Assembly (NCBI GenBank): GCA_025999395.1
Contig: AP024682.1
Coordinates: 237,638 to 301,637, forward strand
Origin: Candidatus Parcubacteria bacterium
Lineage (GTDB): Bacteria; Patescibacteriota; Minisyncoccia; UBA6257; JAGOQP01
Length of the DNA: 64,000 bases
Direction of reading: 5' to 3'
A program made the position numbers and the translations under genes. The notes under the pieces were generated by a model. It saw only the letters and a program-made list of their open reading frames with translations. It searched no databases and was not told the origin of the DNA. This document shows, in pieces, positions 1 to 64,000 of the stretch; position 1 is the first letter of the stretch; every line of letters begins with the position of its first letter.

Positions 1-3000
1 GGGACACAAGATGTTGGAGTAAGTGTAAGCATCAAGAATTTTTCTGTTTCTGGTAGTAGTATCTCATTTACCGCCGAGGGTAATAGTTTTTACAAACTTC
101 ATTATTGTTCATTAACAACTGATGGAACAAAGCCTGTGAGTTTGAATGCGTATATTGATAACATTCTTAGAGCTAGTGTTACGGTTAATCCTCAATCATC
201 TACTGATCCAGATTATTCCTACGATTTTTCAATTTCAGGTATAGCCGAAGGATACCATATCTTAAAGGTCACCGCTAGTTCTAATGGAACAAATGATGAA
301 GCAAATCTTTCTTTTAATATACCAACGACCCCTCCTTCACCTCCCCCAGGGCAAGGAGGAAATCCTTCTCCGGGAACGGCTTATTTTGATCCAACGGCGG
401 TTGTAAATAATCAATCTTATTCTTTTCGTGTAGAAGGGGCACCTGCTAATACCACAGGTGATCTTTATAAGTCTCAGAAAGTTAATGGCGTTTGGCAAAA
501 TTGGCAAGTTAGTAATGATTGGATCGTAACTAATAGTAGTGGAAGTGCTACTAAAGGACCTTGGACATGTACCAGCGCCACAGCCGGTGAATTTAAAGTA
601 AAGATAAAGTGGGATGGTTATAATGATTTGGAAACACCCGAAGCTTATTTTAAATGTACTTACTATCCACCACCGACCGCTTTTGCATCTATTAGCCCAT
701 CGCAGATGGTTGTTGGAGGTGGAAATGTAAATTTTAATTGGGGCGGGGGGCCATTTTGTCAAGCGACTCTGAGTGCGGGAATTGGTATCAATGTTAGCGG
801 AGAGAGATCATTTTCGTTGCCTGTTATTTTTAACAGCGCGACTAACGATCCGGTAGACTATCGGCTTTCTGTTACTTGTCACAATGAAGTCGGTGAGATA
901 GCTCAAAGTAGCGCAAGCTTTAATGGTTTTTGGAGTTATGCTCACTGGTATGCTTTTAAGAAAAATAGCTGTGAAGCTGCTGATAATACAGCCCAAAGGG
1001 AAACAACTTTAGAAGGTAAGAATGGAGTTAGGTTCACTGCTAAAAGAGTTTATTCTGATAACGGGGATATTACCACTTGGCCCGATAGTTATCTAAATGA
1101 TGGTGACGATCGAGTTTGGTCGTATAATAATAATCACCAAGCTACTTACTCTGTTGATAGTGTAACACTAGTTCCTTCCGGTTATAAATACTGCAGTAAT
1201 AGTGGACCTGTGACTTTTTCTGATCCAACAGTGCCTAAAGAAGATACAATTAAATTATATTTCGCACCAAGTGTAGGTGGTGGACAACAATACACTCTCT
1301 CTGTATCTAAATCGGGTACAGGTAGCGGAACAGTTATCTCGAATCCATCAGGAATTAACTGTGGTGCTGATTGCACTGAGAGCTATAACTCTGGCACTCA
1401 AGTTACTCTCATAGCTAACCCTGATTCGGGTTCGAGTTTTATAGGTTGGAGCGGAGATTGTTCAGGAGTAGGAGATTGCATTTTAACGATAAATAACAAC
1501 AAATCAGTAACAGCCACTTTTAATACAAGTAGCATTACTGATCCGCCAAAATCAGCTCCTGATCTTTCCGGAGTAGCTGAGTGTCATATGAATTATCCTA
1601 CTTCATCGGTTCAGTCTTATCTTTCCTGGACAGAGGTGCCGGATGCCACAAGTTATGAGGTTTGGTGGGATAAACTCATTAATCAATTGTTAATAACTAC
1701 TTCCAATTTGTTTTATATCCATCGAGATCTAAATTCCGGTTCTTCATATTCTTATTTTGTTAATGGAAAAAACAGTGTTGGTAGTGGCCCTGATTCTAAT
1801 ACAGTAACCTTAACAATGCCATCTTCTTGTTCTAATCCCCCCCCACCTCCTCCGGGAGCTACTCCAACATTAGTGATTACTCCTAGTTCTCAAACAATTA
1901 GCGTAGGAGATAACGCTTCTTATATTGCCTTGTATGATCCCGATGGTACTCAAGATAGATATGGAGATTTTGATGTAACTCAGTTAGCTAATTGGTCATC
2001 GGATAATTCAACAATTGCTTCTTTACAAGGTAAGGGACTCTTTCGCGGAGAAAAAAGTGGCTCCACTCTTGTCCATGCTACCTATCAAGGGTTAACTGCC
2101 AATGCTTCTATTAGTGTTTTGGCAGAAAATGATTTTTCTCTTTCTATTACTCCAAATTTGAGAGAAGTTCAGAAACCCGGTCAAGCTCAATATACTGTTA
2201 CCGTTTCAAAGATAGGAAATTTCAGTGGGAATGTTACTCTTTCAGCACCAAAGCTTCCAGTGGGAGTAACAGCTAGTTTTTCTCCTCAAGTTGTTTTGGG
2301 AGGAAGTGGAACTTCTACTTTAACTCTTAATGTAAGCAATGATGCTTTAATAGGAAGATCAACTTTTGATGTAAAGGGAGTGAGTGGAAATCTATCTCAT
2401 CTTGCTCAAGCGGATATCAACATTACAGGTACACCTCCGCAGCTTTCCTGTACAGTTATTCCCAATCCGCAAAGTGGTCAAGCACCATTAACAACCACAG
2501 TTTCTGCTACTGGTTCTGGAGGAAGCGGTAATTATCGTTATCGTTTTGATTGGGAAAGTGATGGTACTTATGATACAGGATTTGTTACTTCTCCTAAGCA
2601 GCACACTTACACTAGTAATGGTACTTATCGAATCACCGTTGAGGTAAAAGATTTATCTGACAACAGTACTGCTACTTGCAATACAGGAGTAGCTTCTGGC
2701 TCGTGTCAAGGCTCAAGCTGTGATGTTTGTGTCGGTGATAACTGTGGAGGAAATCAGCCCTCGGTGGATTTGAAAGTTAATGGTAGTGACGGTCCCTTAA
2801 CCTTAGCTTATCTGCCGGGGAGTAACTTTGGAGCAACGATGGATGTAAACTGGCAGGCAAGCAATGTTTCTTCTTGTACTGCTTCAGCTTCTCCTGAGGT
2901 AACTGGCTGGAGCGGGGTTTTGCCTTCTTTGTCAGGGCAAGTTTCTGCTTATGCTTTTGATGTCAATCCCGATCCCAATCAGGGAACTAATTATCAACTT

Positions 3001-3351
3001 CAAATTACTTGTAATCCTACCGATTCGGTTTCGGTAAATGTAGTTAAGTGTGGCCCAGGATCAGAAAGTGTTCCTCAGTGTCAACAATTAGATGCTTGTT
3101 ATTTAACAGCAACTCCTTCCACGATTATTTCGGGCCAGTTTACAACCTTAGAGTGGGGCTGCACTAATCCTCAAGGAAAAACATGCACCATCGAGCAGGG
3201 AATTGGTGATGTTAGTCCAGAAGGAGGCACCAAGAGAGTCAATCCTCGTCAAACTACTACTTATACTCTTTCCTGCACCGGAGTAGATGATTCTTATGTA
3301 ACTGTAAGAGTTAGCTTCTTAAAGAAGATTAGGGAAATAATTCCTTGGTAG
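1..3351 (+). CDS. Giant extracellular multidomain protein, 5'-truncated by the window edge. Contains an InlB B-repeat-like module, an FN3-like module, a Big_2-like Ig module, a PKD-like module and C-terminal Cys-paired beta modules.
   Basis: Frame 1 has no stop from nt 1, so the gene continues upstream of the listed ATG at 136. The motif TLSVSKSGTGSGTVISNPSGINCGADCTESYNSGTQVTLIANPDSGSSFIGWSGDCSG matches the Listeria-Bacteroides InlB B-repeat. YRYRFDWESDGTYDTG...GTYRITVEVKD resembles a PKD domain. TLVITPSSQTISVGDNASY resembles Big_2. SWTEVPDATSYEVWW resembles FN3. The N-terminal part is paralogous to the middle of the 58475..60337 protein. Confidence 0.6.
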   Translation, partial: GTQDVGVSVSIKNFSVSGSSISFTAEGNSFYKLHYCSLTTDGTKPVSLNAYIDNILRASVTVNPQSSTDPDYSYDFSISGIAEGYHILKVTASSNGTNDEANLSFNIPTTPPSPPPGQGGNPSPGTAYFDPTAVVNNQSYSFRVEGAPANTTGDLYKSQKVNGVWQNWQVSNDWIVTNSSGSATKGPWTCTSATAGEFKVKIKWDGYNDLETPEAYFKCTYYPPPTAFASISPSQMVVGGGNVNFNWGGGPFCQATLSAGIGINVSGERSFSLPVIFNSATNDPVDYRLSVTCHNEVGEIAQSSASFNGFWSYAHWYAFKKNSCEAADNTAQRETTLEGKNGVRFTAKRVYSDNGDITTWPDSYLNDGDDRVWSYNNNHQATYSVDSVTLVPSGYKYCSNSGPVTFSDPTVPKEDTIKLYFAPSVGGGQQYTLSVSKSGTGSGTVISNPSGINCGADCTESYNSGTQVTLIANPDSGSSFIGWSGDCSGVGDCILTINNNKSVTATFNTSSITDPPKSAPDLSGVAECHMNYPTSSVQSYLSWTEVPDATSYEVWWDKLINQLLITTSNLFYIHRDLNSGSSYSYFVNGKNSVGSGPDSNTVTLTMPSSCSNPPPPPPGATPTLVITPSSQTISVGDNASYIALYDPDGTQDRYGDFDVTQLANWSSDNSTIASLQGKGLFRGEKSGSTLVHATYQGLTANASISVLAENDFSLSITPNLREVQKPGQAQYTVTVSKIGNFSGNVTLSAPKLPVGVTASFSPQVVLGGSGTSTLTLNVSNDALIGRSTFDVKGVSGNLSHLAQADINITGTPPQLSCTVIPNPQSGQAPLTTTVSATGSGGSGNYRYRFDWESDGTYDTGFVTSPKQHTYTSNGTYRITVEVKDLSDNSTATCNTGVASGSCQGSSCDVCVGDNCGGNQPSVDLKVNGSDGPLTLAYLPGSNFGATMDVNWQASNVSSCTASASPEVTGWSGVLPSLSGQVSAYAFDVNPDPNQGTNYQLQITCNPTDSVSVNVVKCGPGSESVPQCQQLDACYLTATPSTIISGQFTTLEWGCTNPQGKTCTIEQGIGDVSPEGGTKRVNPRQTTTYTLSCTGVDDSYVTVRVSFLKKIREIIPW

Positions 3352-57722: not shown

Positions 57723-58335
57723 AATGGCTACTCGAAAAGATTTTTTGTTGGTTTTTATTATCGGAGTTTTTTTTGGAGTTTTTTCTTTGCCAATTATTAA
57801 AAATGTTGCCAGTAGTTTTTCTTTTTCTTGGGTACTAGCAACGGGGTTTGTTTTTTTCTTAGGGATGGTAGCGGTTTTTTTTCTCTGGTTGGCTTCTTTG
57901 ATTTCTTTAAAAATTCCAATAGTTTTTCAATTAGCTAAGTTTGCAGCGGTGGGTTCTTTTAATACTTTTTTAGACTGGGGGATAGTTAATTTACTGATTT
58001 TTTTAACAGGAATTGTGAGTGGTTTGGGGTTTAGTCTTTTTAAGGCAATTTCTTTCTTAATAGCAAATATCGGAAGTTATTTTTGGAATAAGTACTGGAC
58101 TTTTATTGATAAAGATAAAGCCAACATTCAGGAGTTTGGAAAATTTTTTGTTGTTAGTGTTATTGGGATGGTGTTGAATGTAGTGGTTGCTTCTTTAATT
58201 GTTAACTACATTGCTTATCCTTCTTCTTTAAGCCCTCGGCAGTGGGCTAATGTTGCACTTTTGGTAGCTACTTTAGTTTCTTTGGTTTGGAACTTTGTGG
58301 GTTATAAGTTTTTTGTTTTTGAGAAGAAAAACTAA
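57703..58335 (+). CDS. GtrA-family membrane protein.
   Basis: 4 TM helices. FAAVGSFNTFLDWGIVNLL and YFWNKYWTF are typical of GtrA. Confidence 0.6.
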   Translation: MIFLLNKMATRKDFLLVFIIGVFFGVFSLPIIKNVASSFSFSWVLATGFVFFLGMVAVFFLWLASLISLKIPIVFQLAKFAAVGSFNTFLDWGIVNLLIFLTGIVSGLGFSLFKAISFLIANIGSYFWNKYWTFIDKDKANIQEFGKFFVVSVIGMVLNVVVASLIVNYIAYPSSLSPRQWANVALLVATLVSLVWNFVGYKFFVFEKKN

Positions 58336-58474
58336 CTTTTGTAAGAAAACCAAGTTTTATTTTTAAATTACCATTAAATCATCTATTAATATATAAGTAT
58401 TTTCTTGTTAAAATTATAAAAATCACTTACCTTTTGTTTTATTATAATTAATACATTTTATTAATTTTGATTGT

Positions 58475-60337
58475 ATGCAAAAAACAAAAAACAAGGGAAT
58501 TTTTTTATCGAGTACTTCTATTACTACCTTTATTTTTTTAATTGCGCTTTTCAATGTTATTAATTTTGCAACCAATCTGGCTTTAGCGGTTCAAGAAGAT
58601 GGAGGTTGCGAATACACTGGTAATGGTTATCTTTGCGGAGGTGAGTGGTATGAAGGAGGAAGCAGTGGAGGAGGAGAAGGAGGTGGAGGAACTGGCGGGG
58701 GATTAGCTTCTGCTATTGGTAAAGTGGCGGCCACAGCTGATGAAGCTATTCAGCTTAGAAGAACAGTTAAAGATTATGCTTATGGAGCTTGTGCTACTAT
58801 TCCAAATCCTTTTAAGATAGCTGCTTTGCCAGGAAAGATTCTTGAATTGAAATTAAAAGTGGCTGAATTACAAGCACGAATCTTACAAGACGGTCCGCTT
58901 TCGTTAACTTCGAAGTTTGATGATTTAGTTAAGAAAACAGATGAATTTACTTTCTATGCTCTTCAAACTACTTTACCAGGAGGATGTCATAAAAGCAAAA
59001 TTGATAGTACTTCTAAGGATTTGAATGATTTACTTGTTTTTATAAGAGATGAAGCGGCCAAGGATTTTCTTTCTTCTAAACTACCTCAAGTTATTACTTT
59101 AGCCGCCAACAATATTTCAAGTGTTTCAGCGACTTTGAGGGGTTCGGTAAGTCCGCCAGCTCAAAACAGCGCCGTCTACTGGTTTGAGTGGGGCGAAAAT
59201 CAAAGTGATCTTTCTAAAAAAACAACAGAAAAAACAACAGGCATTGTTTCCTCTTTAAGTGTTTCTGAAAACATTTCCGGATTAACAGTGGGAAAAACCT
59301 ACTATTTTAGAGTAGCGGCTCGAACGGAGGGAAAAAGTAAAGTAGCCTACGGTCAGATTTTAAGTTTTGTTGCTCAATCAACTAGTTCTCAACAATTCAC
59401 TCTCACTGTTTCCAAATCAGGAACAGGAAGTGGAACTGTTACCTCAACTCCCACAGGAATTAATTGTGGTACTGATTGTAGTGAATCTTATGCTTCTGGT
59501 ACTTCTGTTACTCTTCGGGCTACTGCAAGTGCAGGCTCAGTTTTTGCTGGCTGGAGTGGGGATTGTTCGGGAACAGGAACTTGTACAGTAGCATTAGATA
59601 GTAATAAAACAGTAACTGCTACTTTCAATTCTTCAAGTGGTGGCAGCGGAGGAACCCTTTCTTATAGTCAGGAGCATAGTTATTATGGCGATACTTATTA
59701 TTTAACGGTTTCTAATGGGCCGGCTTCTTTAAGTGGCACTCTTTATAAACGAACCAAAAATACTGTTGATGATAACTGGGGTAATTGGGTAACAAGTTCT
59801 AATTGGATTCAAACAGATAATCAAGGAAACGCAAGAAAACCAGCTGGAAGTGGTACTTGGACTTGTTTAGAAGCAGATCCAGATGTTGCCGAAATTTATA
59901 TAAAGTGGTCAAATGGACTTGAAACAAACCGCGCCGTTCATTACTGTACAGTAAGAGAAAATAACTCTCAACAATTCACTCTCACTGTTTCCAAATCAGG
60001 AACAGGAAGTGGAACTGTTACCTCAACTCCCACAGGAATTAATTGTGGTACTGATTGTAGTGAATCTTATGCTTCTGGTACTTCTGTTACTCTTCGGGCT
60101 ACTGCAAGTGCAGGCTCAGTTTTTGCTGGCTGGAGTGGGGATTGTTCGGGAACAGGAACTTGTACAGTAGCATTAGATAGTAATAAAACAGTAACTGCTA
60201 CTTTTAATCACATGTCTGTGAGTAGTGGAGATCCTTCGGTTAATGGTGAAAATCAACCAGGTCCGTCTGGTACCTACACTCTTTCTCTGAAACTAGGGCA
60301 TTTTCAAGGAGGTTCATCCTTTGTTGAGGATCGGTAA
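58475..60337 (+). CDS. Secreted multidomain surface protein, paralogue of the 1..3351 protein, with two identical InlB-B-repeat modules.
   Basis: Signal/TM at the N-terminus. A Gly-rich linker and an FN3-like module. The module QQFTLTVSKSGTGSGTVTSTPTGINCGTDCSESYASGTSVTLRATASAGSVFAGWSGDCSGTGTCTVALDSNKTVTATFN occurs twice. The segment between the two copies is homologous to the N-terminal region of the 1..3351 protein. Confidence 0.55.
   Translation: MQKTKNKGIFLSSTSITTFIFLIALFNVINFATNLALAVQEDGGCEYTGNGYLCGGEWYEGGSSGGGEGGGGTGGGLASAIGKVAATADEAIQLRRTVKDYAYGACATIPNPFKIAALPGKILELKLKVAELQARILQDGPLSLTSKFDDLVKKTDEFTFYALQTTLPGGCHKSKIDSTSKDLNDLLVFIRDEAAKDFLSSKLPQVITLAANNISSVSATLRGSVSPPAQNSAVYWFEWGENQSDLSKKTTEKTTGIVSSLSVSENISGLTVGKTYYFRVAARTEGKSKVAYGQILSFVAQSTSSQQFTLTVSKSGTGSGTVTSTPTGINCGTDCSESYASGTSVTLRATASAGSVFAGWSGDCSGTGTCTVALDSNKTVTATFNSSSGGSGGTLSYSQEHSYYGDTYYLTVSNGPASLSGTLYKRTKNTVDDNWGNWVTSSNWIQTDNQGNARKPAGSGTWTCLEADPDVAEIYIKWSNGLETNRAVHYCTVRENNSQQFTLTVSKSGTGSGTVTSTPTGINCGTDCSESYASGTSVTLRATASAGSVFAGWSGDCSGTGTCTVALDSNKTVTATFNHMSVSSGDPSVNGENQPGPSGTYTLSLKLGHFQGGSSFVEDR
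59387..59629 (+). repeat. Direct repeat copy 1 (243 bp), one mismatch versus copy 2.
   Basis: Nucleotide-identical to 59966..60208 apart from a C/T at the last codon (59626 vs 60205). The offset is 579 bp, which is 193 codons. Confidence 0.9.
59966..60208 (+). repeat. Direct repeat copy 2 (243 bp).
   Basis: See copy 1. Confidence 0.9.
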
Positions 60338-60367
60338 CTAACCAACACCGAAAAATCTCAACTCAAG

Positions 60368-62419
60368 GTGGAAATTTGGACTCAGTCTACAGGAATTTAT
60401 AGCAGTGGTACAAAAGTTGCCGAAGGCAGTCTTGATTCTCCTATCTCTTTAAGTCCCGGGACTTATCAGGCGGTTTTGAAAGGTTCTTTACCCTCACCTT
60501 ATAATGCTACCAAGCAAGTTCCCTTAAATTGTGTTTTCTTCTCAATTTCTTCTTCTCAGTCAACCGGAGTAACCTGCACTCTTGAGGCTTACAACAAAAA
60601 CGATACTAGCAATTATAATCTTCCCTCATCAGAAAGACCCTCCGGTGCCCCACCAATGGTAGAAGTTGATTCGTCTCTAGGTTCCTATCAGTTTGTTAAA
60701 AATGTGGTGGATATAAGCGAAGATGGTCCTAGTAGTAGTATTACTTCTATTAAGTTTGCTACCTTATACGGCAAAAAAGTAATGTTAATTGGGACAAGAA
60801 AGTACTTAGATTCAAGTAGAAGATATGAATATAAGCTTTCGATTTATGATATAGCCAATCCGTTTAATCCTCAATTACTTAAGGAAAATACTTTTTCGGA
60901 TGATTCTGCTGAGGTAAAGAGTATTTTACTTGGCGCTGCTGATTTCTCACAGCTAACGATTCTCGATAATCATCCGGTGATTTATGGGCGTCCCAATTAT
61001 GCTGCAACTGGTGCTGTTCATGTTTTTGTCAAAATTAACCCCGACTGGAGTTTAGGCGATATTCAAGATTTTGATGTTAAAGAAAGTGGAGGCAGTATTA
61101 GTAATAAGTATGTTCCTACCACTTTATTCCGCGGCTTAGATGGGAAACCGTATGCTTTAGCATACGATACTTCAGAGGGCTATGGTTGCAACAACATTAA
61201 AATTTTAGATGTCTCGTCTTCTACTGCTTCTATTATTGGCGAGATAAAAGAATCAGAACTGAATATAGGTTATTGCGAGTCGGGAATAGATTATAATAAT
61301 TCAAAATCTATCAGATGGTTTGCTGCTCAGCCAGTGCGTGCTTCAAGCGGAAAATTATATCTGGTTATTCCAACCGACGATGCAGTTGCTCGTCTTCATA
61401 CCTCAGAACGAGCTTGGATTTCTGTTTTTGATGTTAGCAACCCTTCTAATCCTCAGTTTGTTGGTAAATGGCAAATGAGCGGATTAAATGGTCAGCTTCA
61501 TTTTCCTGATGCGTCGGAATCTGAAAAAGCCAAAATTTATGCTGATGCTGGCTTAATAGAAGTTGATCCAGTAACCGGCTATGTCTACGATATTTTTCCC
61601 CATATGTATGACTTTCAAAACGGAGCTTATATGACAAGTGGAGAAGCAGTTAACGCCTTCAACAAAATCTCCGGTCCTTGGCGTTATCGCAACGGCATTA
61701 TTATCAGAAAACTGAACAACTCCGGTAATTTTGATTTTGTTTATCGAGCTACTTTGTGTGAAACTGAGGGGAGCAGACCAAGCGGTAGTCAGTCTGGTAG
61801 CTTTCACCGGGTAGAATGTGGCGACCAAGCCGAATGGTGGGGCAACAAAACTTTTGATGAAGCTTTTTATGGCATTGGAGGTTATATAACAATACTACCA
61901 TTGCCTGGAACTCACGCTTATAATGGTTTGGTTTTATTGAGGGATCTTACTAAATCCTCTATTGAAGAAAGTGGGCTAAGATTGGGTGGCAAAAAAATTA
62001 AAATGATTGCTGGTTCCCCAGTGGTTGTTGGCTTAATGACTTCTGATAATAAATTCAAAATTATCCCTGATTCTTCAGATGAATTTCTTAAATTCTCGGG
62101 TTCGCTTGCAAAAATTATTAGCACCGGTCAATACACAAATTATGGCAAATATCTCTTTGATGCCCATCTTCAACAAGTCGATAATAAAACCTTTGCTATC
62201 TTCCAGATTCATCCCACCTCAATTGATGTGGTTAAACTCACTTTAACTCAACCTCGTCCTCTTCCTTCAAGTAGCCCCTCTTTTACTCCTCAGGCTACTA
62301 CAATGACTCTTACTACTGCTTCTGCTACACCCTCAACAGGAACCTCCTCTTCCATTCAAGGAACTCTCTATTCTATTAGAAGTATTCTTAATAATTTAAG
62401 AAGAATTCTAAGTAGATAA
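60368..62419 (+). CDS. LVIVD-repeat beta-propeller protein with a Ser/Thr/Pro-rich C-terminal tail. It is in the same frame as the upstream surface-protein gene, separated only by a TAA.
   Basis: YKLSIYDIANPFNPQLL and WISVFDVSNPSNPQFVGKW are LVIVD-repeat signatures. GTG start. No signal peptide and no convincing RBS. Confidence 0.5.
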   Translation: MEIWTQSTGIYSSGTKVAEGSLDSPISLSPGTYQAVLKGSLPSPYNATKQVPLNCVFFSISSSQSTGVTCTLEAYNKNDTSNYNLPSSERPSGAPPMVEVDSSLGSYQFVKNVVDISEDGPSSSITSIKFATLYGKKVMLIGTRKYLDSSRRYEYKLSIYDIANPFNPQLLKENTFSDDSAEVKSILLGAADFSQLTILDNHPVIYGRPNYAATGAVHVFVKINPDWSLGDIQDFDVKESGGSISNKYVPTTLFRGLDGKPYALAYDTSEGYGCNNIKILDVSSSTASIIGEIKESELNIGYCESGIDYNNSKSIRWFAAQPVRASSGKLYLVIPTDDAVARLHTSERAWISVFDVSNPSNPQFVGKWQMSGLNGQLHFPDASESEKAKIYADAGLIEVDPVTGYVYDIFPHMYDFQNGAYMTSGEAVNAFNKISGPWRYRNGIIIRKLNNSGNFDFVYRATLCETEGSRPSGSQSGSFHRVECGDQAEWWGNKTFDEAFYGIGGYITILPLPGTHAYNGLVLLRDLTKSSIEESGLRLGGKKIKMIAGSPVVVGLMTSDNKFKIIPDSSDEFLKFSGSLAKIISTGQYTNYGKYLFDAHLQQVDNKTFAIFQIHPTSIDVVKLTLTQPRPLPSSSPSFTPQATTMTLTTASATPSTGTSSSIQGTLYSIRSILNNLRRILSR

Positions 62420-62676
62420 TACTGGAAGCATTATATTTTCTTAGCTTTCTCTTTTTAGAGCAGAATTTTCTTGTTGAGTAAACAGTAAGAACAAATGCGA
62501 GGCAGCGGGTGAGCTTAATCTTGTTTCTTACATGTTTGCTGATTTTTTAGGGGTGGTGAGGCAATTTTTGTGTTTTTATTTTTCAAAACTTAGTGTAAAA
62601 TAAAAATGGTGGCGGAAAATGCTCACTCAAGTAAGAAAAAAAACAGGAGCCTACCTTTCCGCCACCATTTTTATTA

Positions 62677-63681
62677 ATGGTGAAAAAAGAAGTAAAATCA
62701 AAAAATTTCTTTTCTGCCCTTATTAGCGGAGGTCTGAAAAGAAATGTTTCATTAAAAAATTACAGTCATCTAAAAATTGGAGGCAGAGCCAGTTATTTTT
62801 TTAAGGCTTCGAAAATCGGTGATTTAATTTTAACTTTAACCTGGTGGCTTAATTCTTTTCCTCAAAAACCAATTTTTGTTTTGGGCGAGGGGACAAATGT
62901 TTTATTTAAGGGTGACTTTTTTGATGGCTTGGTGATTAAGATGGATTTAAAGAAATTGGATTATTTAGGGAAAGGCTTGGTTTTTGCGGAAGCGGGAGTT
63001 TCGATGAGGAAGTTAGTTAATTTTTGTTTTCAGAAAAAGTTGGCAGGATTAGAGTGGGCAGCGGGATTACCAGGAACAGTGGGGGGAGCGGTTTATGGAA
63101 ATGCTGGTTGTTTTGGGAGGGAAATCAGAGATGTAGTTGAAGGGGTTCTTACTTTGGAAAGAAGGGGGAAAGAGCTTTCTCTTTCTTTAAGAAAAAACAA
63201 AGAATGTTTGTTTAAATATCGGTCCAGTATTTTTAAGAAAAACCAAAAGAAAGGAGAGCTTCTCTTAATTGTTGGAGTTCTTTTAAAATTACAGCCAGTA
63301 AAAGATATAAAACCTTTTAGAGAAAAAGCCTCTTTTATTCTTCGTTATCGTCGTCAAAAACATCCTCTGGATTTTCCAACTCTTGGCAGTACCTTTAAAA
63401 ATATTTCTCTTTCTCGCCTGCCTTCTTCTTTAAGGAATAAATTTCAGGAGAAAATAAAAAATGATCCCTTTTTAGTTCTCCCGGTTGCGGTTCTTTTGGA
63501 AAAAGCAGGCTTAAAGGGAAAAAAGAAAGGGGGAGCGCAGTTTTCTTTGAAGCATCCAAACTTTATTGTTAATCTCGGGAAAGCTACCGCTAAAGATGTT
63601 TTGCAACTTATTGCTTTGGCAAAGAAAAAAGTTTGGAAAAAGTTTCAAGTAAAGATTGAGGAAGAAATTGAAATTGTGTAA
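62677..63681 (+). CDS. murB: UDP-N-acetylenolpyruvoylglucosamine reductase.
   Basis: LKIGGRASYFF, GEGTNVLF, GLEWAAGLPGTVGGAVYGNAGCFGREI. Confidence 0.85.
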   Translation: MVKKEVKSKNFFSALISGGLKRNVSLKNYSHLKIGGRASYFFKASKIGDLILTLTWWLNSFPQKPIFVLGEGTNVLFKGDFFDGLVIKMDLKKLDYLGKGLVFAEAGVSMRKLVNFCFQKKLAGLEWAAGLPGTVGGAVYGNAGCFGREIRDVVEGVLTLERRGKELSLSLRKNKECLFKYRSSIFKKNQKKGELLLIVGVLLKLQPVKDIKPFREKASFILRYRRQKHPLDFPTLGSTFKNISLSRLPSSLRNKFQEKIKNDPFLVLPVAVLLEKAGLKGKKKGGAQFSLKHPNFIVNLGKATAKDVLQLIALAKKKVWKKFQVKIEEEIEIV

Positions 63682-63910
63682 AGCTTTAATTTTTTTTAAA
63701 TTAGAACTTTAGAGAAAGAATAAATTTTTTTTAAAAATTTTTGAATGAAAAATTTTTACTTATCCACAGATTTTTGTTTTTCTTTTTTTAAAAATGTATT
63801 ATAATTAAGTTGATAAAAAATTTTTTAGCGTAATTGGGTGGTCGGCAATTACGCTAAATAAGTGAAATTAATTTTCTTTCTGTTAACAAAAAGCAGAAAG
63901 AAAGAAAATA

Positions 63911-63991
63911 ATGGCTATGAAAAAAAAGGCAGCCAAAAAAACCAAAAAAGCTGCCAAAAAATCAAGCAAAAAATCAAGCAAGAGAAGATAA
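63911..63991 (+). CDS. Possible 26-aa Lys-rich micro-ORF (MAMKKKAAKKTKKAAKKSSKKSSKRR).
   Basis: ATG preceded by an A/G-rich stretch (AAAGAAAGAAAATAATG). Very short, so it could be non-coding. Confidence 0.15.
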   Translation: MAMKKKAAKKTKKAAKKSSKKSSKRR

Positions 63992-64000
63992 AACTTCTTG

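Follow-up and report, generated by a model that had tools for sequence, protein, structure and literature searches.

Among described systems, the alpha C protein and Rib of group B Streptococcus carry tandem, numerous and DNA-identical intragenic repeats, repeat-bearing surface proteins on which Madoff et al. reportedly wrote in 1996, and recombination drops whole units from them, leaving shorter natural variants. In bacteria, concerted evolution by gene conversion is furthermore known from the tuf genes and rRNA operons, and the intragenic repeats of the yeast FLO genes are said to have been treated by Verstrepen et al. in 2005. The FLO adhesin genes combine intragenic repeats with ectopic recombination between paralogues (PMC3512402). 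Here we analysed a 64,000-nucleotide (nt) stretch, hereafter the window, of the genome KatS3mg098 (AP024682), and within it a gene starting at position 58475 of the + strand, predicted to encode a secreted or surface multidomain protein of Paceibacteria (Patescibacteria) with a would-be product of 1314 residues. This gene carries two nearly identical copies, R_A and R_B, of a 243-nt repeat on either side of a unique domain, S. Repeat-mediated length change together with concerted evolution is of a known kind; in this case it concerns an interspersed pair in an uncultured member of the Paceibacteria. Our overall explanation, which we consider quite likely, combines an ancient R-S-R layout, copies homogenised by conversion, and R x R recombination that excises an R+S cassette.

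A repeat search of window positions 58000-64000 returned one long direct repeat with a spacing of 579 nt, and pairwise alignment of R_A (59387..59629, + strand) with R_B (59966..60208, + strand), 243 nt each, left a single mismatch, C at 59626 versus T at 60205, which is synonymous (TTC/TTT, Phe) and the sole position at which R_B departs from R_A. The original prediction of a near-perfect 243-bp direct duplication, 579 bp apart and with one C/T difference, was thus correct in its coordinates and description. Identity between the copies stops abruptly at both ends, the flanks on either side being unrelated, and the chance probability of such a 243-nt pair is about 1e-135 per pair, over 2e9 pairs in 64 kb. 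Both copies lie inside the open reading frame (ORF) 58475-60337, and each encodes one divergent InlB B-repeat domain of 81 amino acids (aa), in agreement with their initial description as InlB-B-repeat modules: the 620-aa protein contains two stretches that belong to Pfam PF18998 (Flg_new_2; 69.9 bits against a cut-off of 23.6), and its orthologue P0154 matches PF18998 with 69.2 bits and TIGR02543 (List_Bact_rpt) with 24.4 against 20.95. The start-to-start distance of 579 nt corresponds to 193 codons; that the duplication is in frame, as had been pointed out, is true but automatic, because both copies are read in one ORF, and it is no independent observation.

R_A and R_B are interspersed, with two copies only, and do not form a head-to-tail tandem array of the alpha C/Rib type. 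Between them lies a unique 336-nt segment, composed of a Gly/Ser linker, SSSGGSGG (59630..59653, + strand), and the spacer domain S (59654..59965, + strand). Like alpha C and Rib, the gene has long, in-frame, nucleotide-identical repeats and a shorter natural variant that would have arisen by recombinational loss of a whole unit. However, in those proteins the repeats are tandem and many, whereas here two copies surround a unique domain and the unit lost is R+S; in addition, the host is uncultured, and the gene is not known to be linked to immune escape or another phenotype. With the PF18998/TIGR02543 repeat proteins the locus shares its building block, each R being a bona fide member of a family of which many homologues (e.g., P0002) carry arrays. 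In typical PF18998 arrays, however, the copies are 40-60 % identical in aa, whereas those of the window share 99.6 % DNA identity and are not adjacent. The window holds one other B-repeat (1285..1524, + strand, in the gene at 1..3351), for which about 60 % protein identity had been given; we measured 69 % aa and 70 % nt identity, which makes it too diverged for a recent donor. Likewise, a homologue of S at window 415-660, in the same 1..3351 gene, shares 40 % aa identity. A recent donor of R or S elsewhere in the window was consequently rejected.

For comparison, key relatives were drawn from the listing of the 90 % cluster of P0001, the product of KatS3mg098_269. One of them is L004 (GCA_900175145.1), which aligns collinearly with the window over 10 kb at 97 % identity and encodes P0154, an intact orthologue of 1330 aa with the order R1-linker-S-R2, the same 579-nt spacing, and the SSSGGSGG linker conserved after R1. 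A second relative, N2Z68 (GCA_026419535.1), is represented by two contigs, L005 and L002, both of which terminate inside R: L005 ends 141 nt into R_A and L002 begins at nt 12 of R_B. The assembly seems to have been broken by the repeat, and such contig ends fit either one or two cassettes. Within R, the two contigs (184 kb and 112 kb) have 130 identical nt in common (L005:3913-4053 and L002:1-232), and the metagenome-assembled genome (MAG) is without an S domain. A third allele, found as L001 in IMG 3300020153 (GBS60; 60 °C sediment, Great Boiling Spring, Nevada) and as its ENA twin L006 (100 % identical over 4435 nt), has one R and no S. Exact-protein contig look-ups with the window protein returned nothing, genome contig scans found nothing, and neither did a viral contig scan for which 38 nt of R (positions 64-101) were used. 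No literature was found on the accessions or on the InlB B-repeat combined with Patescibacteria.

As the R-S-R layout and its junctions are common to the window and L004, the duplication is older than their split. Nonetheless, the copies within the window are far more alike than this age would let one expect. R_A and R_B differ at one site, whereas R_B of the window and R2 of L004 differ at 19; given the background divergence of 5.1 % between the window and L004, measured over S and A (the flank upstream of R_A), about 12.5 differences would be expected between independent copies versus the one observed in the window (P ~5e-5). Furthermore, substitutions private to a lineage recur in both of its copies: repeat positions 39 and 106 carry changes found in N2Z68 alone and position 174 one found in the window alone, each time in both copies, and at positions 131 and 144 both copies of the lineage comprising the window and N2Z68 differ from both L004 copies. 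Five such substitutions shared by both copies argue for repeated homogenisation and not for a recent duplication. In L004, the pattern is that of a mosaic. R1 and R2 differ at 18 sites, namely 56, 66 and 67 plus 15 within 198-240, with none in the intervening 130 nt (68-197), a difference-free block for which 200,000 permutations gave P ~1.5e-5. All three marks of concerted evolution are therefore present, i.e., within-genome similarity, private substitutions in both copies, and a mosaic tract structure, and on these sequence comparisons the R copies appear to be kept alike by repeated intragenic gene conversion. In tuf and rRNA genes, too, the copies within a genome are more alike than orthologues, private substitutions are shared and tract edges are sharp; however, the converted units there are whole genes, whereas here they would be 243-nt domain modules within one gene.

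The 3' part of R_B deserves separate consideration. In the N2Z68 assembly, both the R1-type 3' block of R_B and the junction from R_B through the linker HMSVSS into the following domain X are confirmed independently, and R_B of N2Z68 retains one R2-type base, at position 198. The lone mismatch of the window falls at a site that also separates R1 and R2 in L004, with opposite polarity. The window and L004 diverge by 3-8 % up to the 3' end of R_B and by 38 % immediately beyond it (60209-60365). A recombination boundary seems to lie at R_B, with the N-terminal half of the gene conserved and the C-terminal half variable.

The allele with one cassette indicates what exchange between the copies could produce. 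In L001, the lone R shows R1 states at 56, 66 and 67 together with the R1 upstream flank, and R2 states at 198-240 followed by the R2 linker SSGGGGRPPG; with 1137 codons, the gene is 193 short of the 1330 of L004. Outside the deletion, 2 nt set it apart from the L004 gene, one of them a nonsense change at codon 68. The L001/L006 allele is thus the L004 allele minus 579 nt, joined in register between repeat positions 68 and 197, and as a chimera of R1 and R2 lacking 193 codons it matches the product of an R1 x R2 crossover in the 130-nt core. That this deletion allele is real appears probable to us. It had been proposed that recombination between the copies would delete or add a whole cassette in frame, and thereby vary the length of a surface protein. 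Loss of a cassette finds an example in L001/L006, 193 codons shorter, from a low-coverage short-read contig, but no variant with three cassettes that would speak for gain was found, and the surface location of the protein is a prediction from sequence. An alternative origin, in which the L001 linker would be that following R_A and the length difference an indel not due to R x R exchange, was rejected, as P0154 shows that this linker belongs to R2 there. The nonsense codon of this allele (L001:505-507, also in L006; GAA to TAA) is independent of the one in the window described below.

Following from these observations, we propose a model in which the R-S-R layout would have arisen before the lineages of the window and L004 split. 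Conversion would since have acted on tracts of different length, extending over all 243 nt in the lineage of the window and over no more than the central 130 nt in L004, and in the lineage of the window and N2Z68, R1-type sequence would have replaced the 3' block of R_B as far as the domain end. Given two long, identical copies with a common orientation and reading frame, homologous recombination would excise one R+S cassette (579 nt, 193 codons) and leave a chimeric R in register, of which the Great Boiling Spring contig may be the product. RecA-type recombination would be the machinery, and the length variation may have a selective value.

Several points weigh against this explanation. The linker that follows R_B, HMSVSS, is unrelated to SSGGGGRPPG of L004, which a simple R1-to-R2 conversion does not explain. 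The copy number in the KatS3 population rests on an assembly at a HiFi coverage of 6.8x, and as no allele with three cassettes was seen, cassette gain is unproven. The one-cassette allele comes from one population, L006 being a SPAdes contig with a k-mer coverage of 4.2, and de Bruijn graph collapse over the 130-nt identical core would yield the same chimera as a true crossover. Thus, gene conversion could be real and cassette loss not, with L001/L006 a short-read collapse and the copy number fixed at two, all the more since the two contigs are identical and probably come from the same reads. We nevertheless consider this unlikely, as an assembler would have to join A, core and X without read-pair support if the loop through S existed, and no S-containing fragment of that sample was among the close matches of the protein search. 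The metagenome contig scan likewise recovered L001 only, but the two S patterns it used do not match S of the L004 type, so that an S contig in GBS60 is possible. In addition, the allele has a nonsense mutation of its own and diverged flanks, which makes L001 a distinct population.

Less weight still can be given to a very recent duplication in the window lineage without gene conversion, in which the copies would be alike because they are young. The two processes had been offered side by side at the outset, as either a very recent duplication or gene conversion, and a single mismatch in 243 nt would by itself suit the former. Of the two, conversion gained support from the shared layout and the private substitutions, and the idea of young copies became very improbable: L004, about 5 % diverged, has identical A-R, R-linker-S and S-R junctions around copies with 18 differences; changes private to N2Z68 (39, 106) or to the window (174) stand in both copies; and a tandem duplication cannot create a unique S between its products.

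An assembly artefact in the window, whether R was duplicated in error or two unlike copies were made uniform in the consensus, has still less in its favour. KatS3mg098 is a circular, finished genome of 561,860 bp with 35.3 % guanine plus cytosine (GC), assigned to the GTDB genus GWA1-42-9 of the class Paceibacteria, and was obtained at 6.8x coverage from sediment at 52 °C in the Katase hot spring, Japan (PMC9671151). It was assembled with metaFlye from PacBio HiFi reads of N50 10.5 kb, size-selected at 5-30 kb (PMC9671151). At this length the reads contain the entire 822-nt feature, so that short-read collapse or expansion does not apply and is very unlikely as the origin of the window repeats. 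An artefact might be suspected since coverage is low and the structure was judged from the assembly, and for the same reason single-base calls are less certain than the repeat structure; but the HiFi reads are long enough to span the region many times over, L004 independently has the R-S-R layout with its 579-nt spacing, and N2Z68 independently has the A-R_A and R_B-HMSVSS-X junctions as well as the R1-type 3' block in R_B. The caution that the duplication might reflect assembly collapse or expansion is accordingly not supported. Finally, two nearly identical repeats within a surface-protein gene of Patescibacteria might recall the template and variable repeats of a diversity-generating retroelement, elements that are common in candidate-phyla-radiation genomes, but the pair does not belong to this class and the idea can be dismissed, as the L004 differences are not adenine-specific (A is the R1 base at 5/18 and the R2 base at 3/18 sites), the one mismatch of the window is C/T, the copies each code for a full domain within a single ORF, and the annotation of the collinear L004 locus shows no reverse transcriptase for 8 kb to either side.

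We therefore retain intragenic conversion with R x R exchange as the preferred explanation, which leads to the question of which gene it concerns. The ORF that had been taken for a whole gene is only the front part of a 1314-codon gene interrupted by TAA. Its N-terminal fragment (58475..60337, + strand; KatS3mg098_269, 620 codons, from the ORF list and a 100 % match to P0001) comprises a signal-peptide-like N-terminus, a Cys/Gly-rich stretch, a helical region, an FN3-like domain, R_A, S, R_B and the initial 42 residues of X, the latter represented by the linker HMSVSS and the start of domain X (60209..60334, + strand), a stretch to which the mature paralogues P0123 and P0124 have homology at their N-terminus. 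The frame is then interrupted by the nonsense codon TAA (60335..60337, + strand), and the rest of the reading frame (60338..62419, + strand), in the same frame as 58475 and annotated as KatS3mg098_270 from ORF 60368-62419, contains the remainder of X, a beta-propeller-like module and a conserved basic C-terminal tail. The full order of domains is hence signal-peptide-like N-terminus, helical region, FN3-like domain, R_A, Gly/Ser linker, S, R_B, X, propeller-like module and basic tail.

The two annotated frames, both termed hypothetical proteins, are kept apart solely by this TAA. At the same place three relatives, P0003/L001, P0122/L002 and P0154/L004, read CAA (Gln) in a frame uninterrupted there, and the paralogues P0123 and P0124 have homologous sequence across position 60335. 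The downstream ORF has neither a signal peptide nor an evident ribosome-binding site. From these comparisons, the window allele appears to be a 1314-codon gene cut after codon 620 by a derived, genome-specific nonsense mutation, and the repeats of the window probably sit in a disabled or shortened allele. Recoding or readthrough of the codon was considered implausible, as TAA is the usual stop in the window, ending 34/52 of its long ORFs.

A surface location of the protein is suggested by the signal-peptide-like N-terminus, which was judged by eye, and by domains of extracellular type, namely the FN3-like domain, the B-repeats and the propeller-like module. The FN3-like assignment corresponds to weak fn3 / Pur_ac_phosph_N matches at residues 227-290 of P0154. 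The C-terminal module was modelled by AlphaFold2 with low confidence (predicted local distance difference test, pLDDT, 56; predicted template modelling score, pTM, 0.59), and the top matches of that model in a Foldseek search of the PDB were all beta-propellers, so that a general beta-propeller resemblance may be assumed from the model; at the sequence level, the PDB yielded no more than marginal matches of Ig/FN3-like type.

Domain S, of about 104 aa with two Cys and without a Pfam family, is very rare, with 12 matches at E<=1e-3 among 1.84 billion representative proteins. Eight of the 12 homologues were read and proved to be large multidomain proteins, most with a signal-peptide-like N-terminus. 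An S-domain alignment search gave no match, yet as it also missed the query's own protein it is uninformative. In P0142-P0144, S stands directly N-terminal to a long C-terminal region with LVIVD-like motifs, which resembles the propeller-like module of the window gene. A short basic tail forms the C-terminus both of the window gene (LNNLRRILSR, 62350-62416) and of the 1..3351 gene (FLKKIREIIPW, 3310-3348), and recurs at the C-terminus of several S-domain homologues, e.g., P0142, P0144, P0146, P0147 and P0149; this conserved tail may be a sorting or anchoring signal. As to the wider context, nearly all long ORFs of window positions 1-64000 lie on the + strand, and the GC skew is positive throughout with a monotonically rising cumulative skew, from which it follows that the whole window lies on one replichore, its genes co-oriented with replication.

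Exchange at this locus seems to extend beyond the repeats. The propeller-like module (window 60740-61640, and also 60175-60700) is 43-75 % identical in nt to L004 and L002, with flanks at 97-98 %, and propeller blocks match paralogues at 75-97 % aa identity, P0122 with P0123, and P0003 with P0124 (KatS3mg098_079), which suggests mosaic exchange of the module between paralogues. In this respect the gene resembles FLO, i.e., surface genes with repeat-driven length change and segment exchange among paralogues, of which the mosaic with P0123 and P0124 is reminiscent; FLO genes, however, are eukaryotic, with short tandem repeats and a known adhesion phenotype. Furthermore, L004:8001-11993 and L001:304-3717 (with L006) are 99.9 % identical in the gene, barring the 579-nt deletion, within flanks of 82-96 %, a pattern that suggests recent transfer of a near-identical allele between diverged strains. 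Different nonsense mutations interrupt the gene in 2/4 sampled populations (window 60335; L001 codon 68). Taken together, these features suggest a recombination-prone, fast-evolving family of surface proteins.

The mechanism itself is textbook, and the value of the locus thus lies in being a well-documented case and not in a new principle. On the practical side, repeats of this type break short-read MAGs, as the N2Z68 contigs illustrate, and annotation splits a gene interrupted by a nonsense codon into two hypothetical proteins. To our knowledge, the ways in which ultra-small bacteria of the candidate phyla radiation vary their large, presumably host-attaching surface proteins are poorly understood, and the gene described here provides a sequence-level example from Paceibacteria of concerted evolution of a domain module, recombinational cassette loss and paralogue mosaicism. 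Because conversion with cassette loss, propeller mosaicism, allele transfer and two independent nonsense knock-outs coincide, the gene might even be a fast-evolving, contingency-type locus for host or phage interaction of episymbiotic Paceibacteria, a tentative and so far doubtful reading that draws on four populations (Japan, Nevada and two without stated origin). If true, a candidate-phyla-radiation bacterium would be engaged in a continuing arms race at its cell surface.

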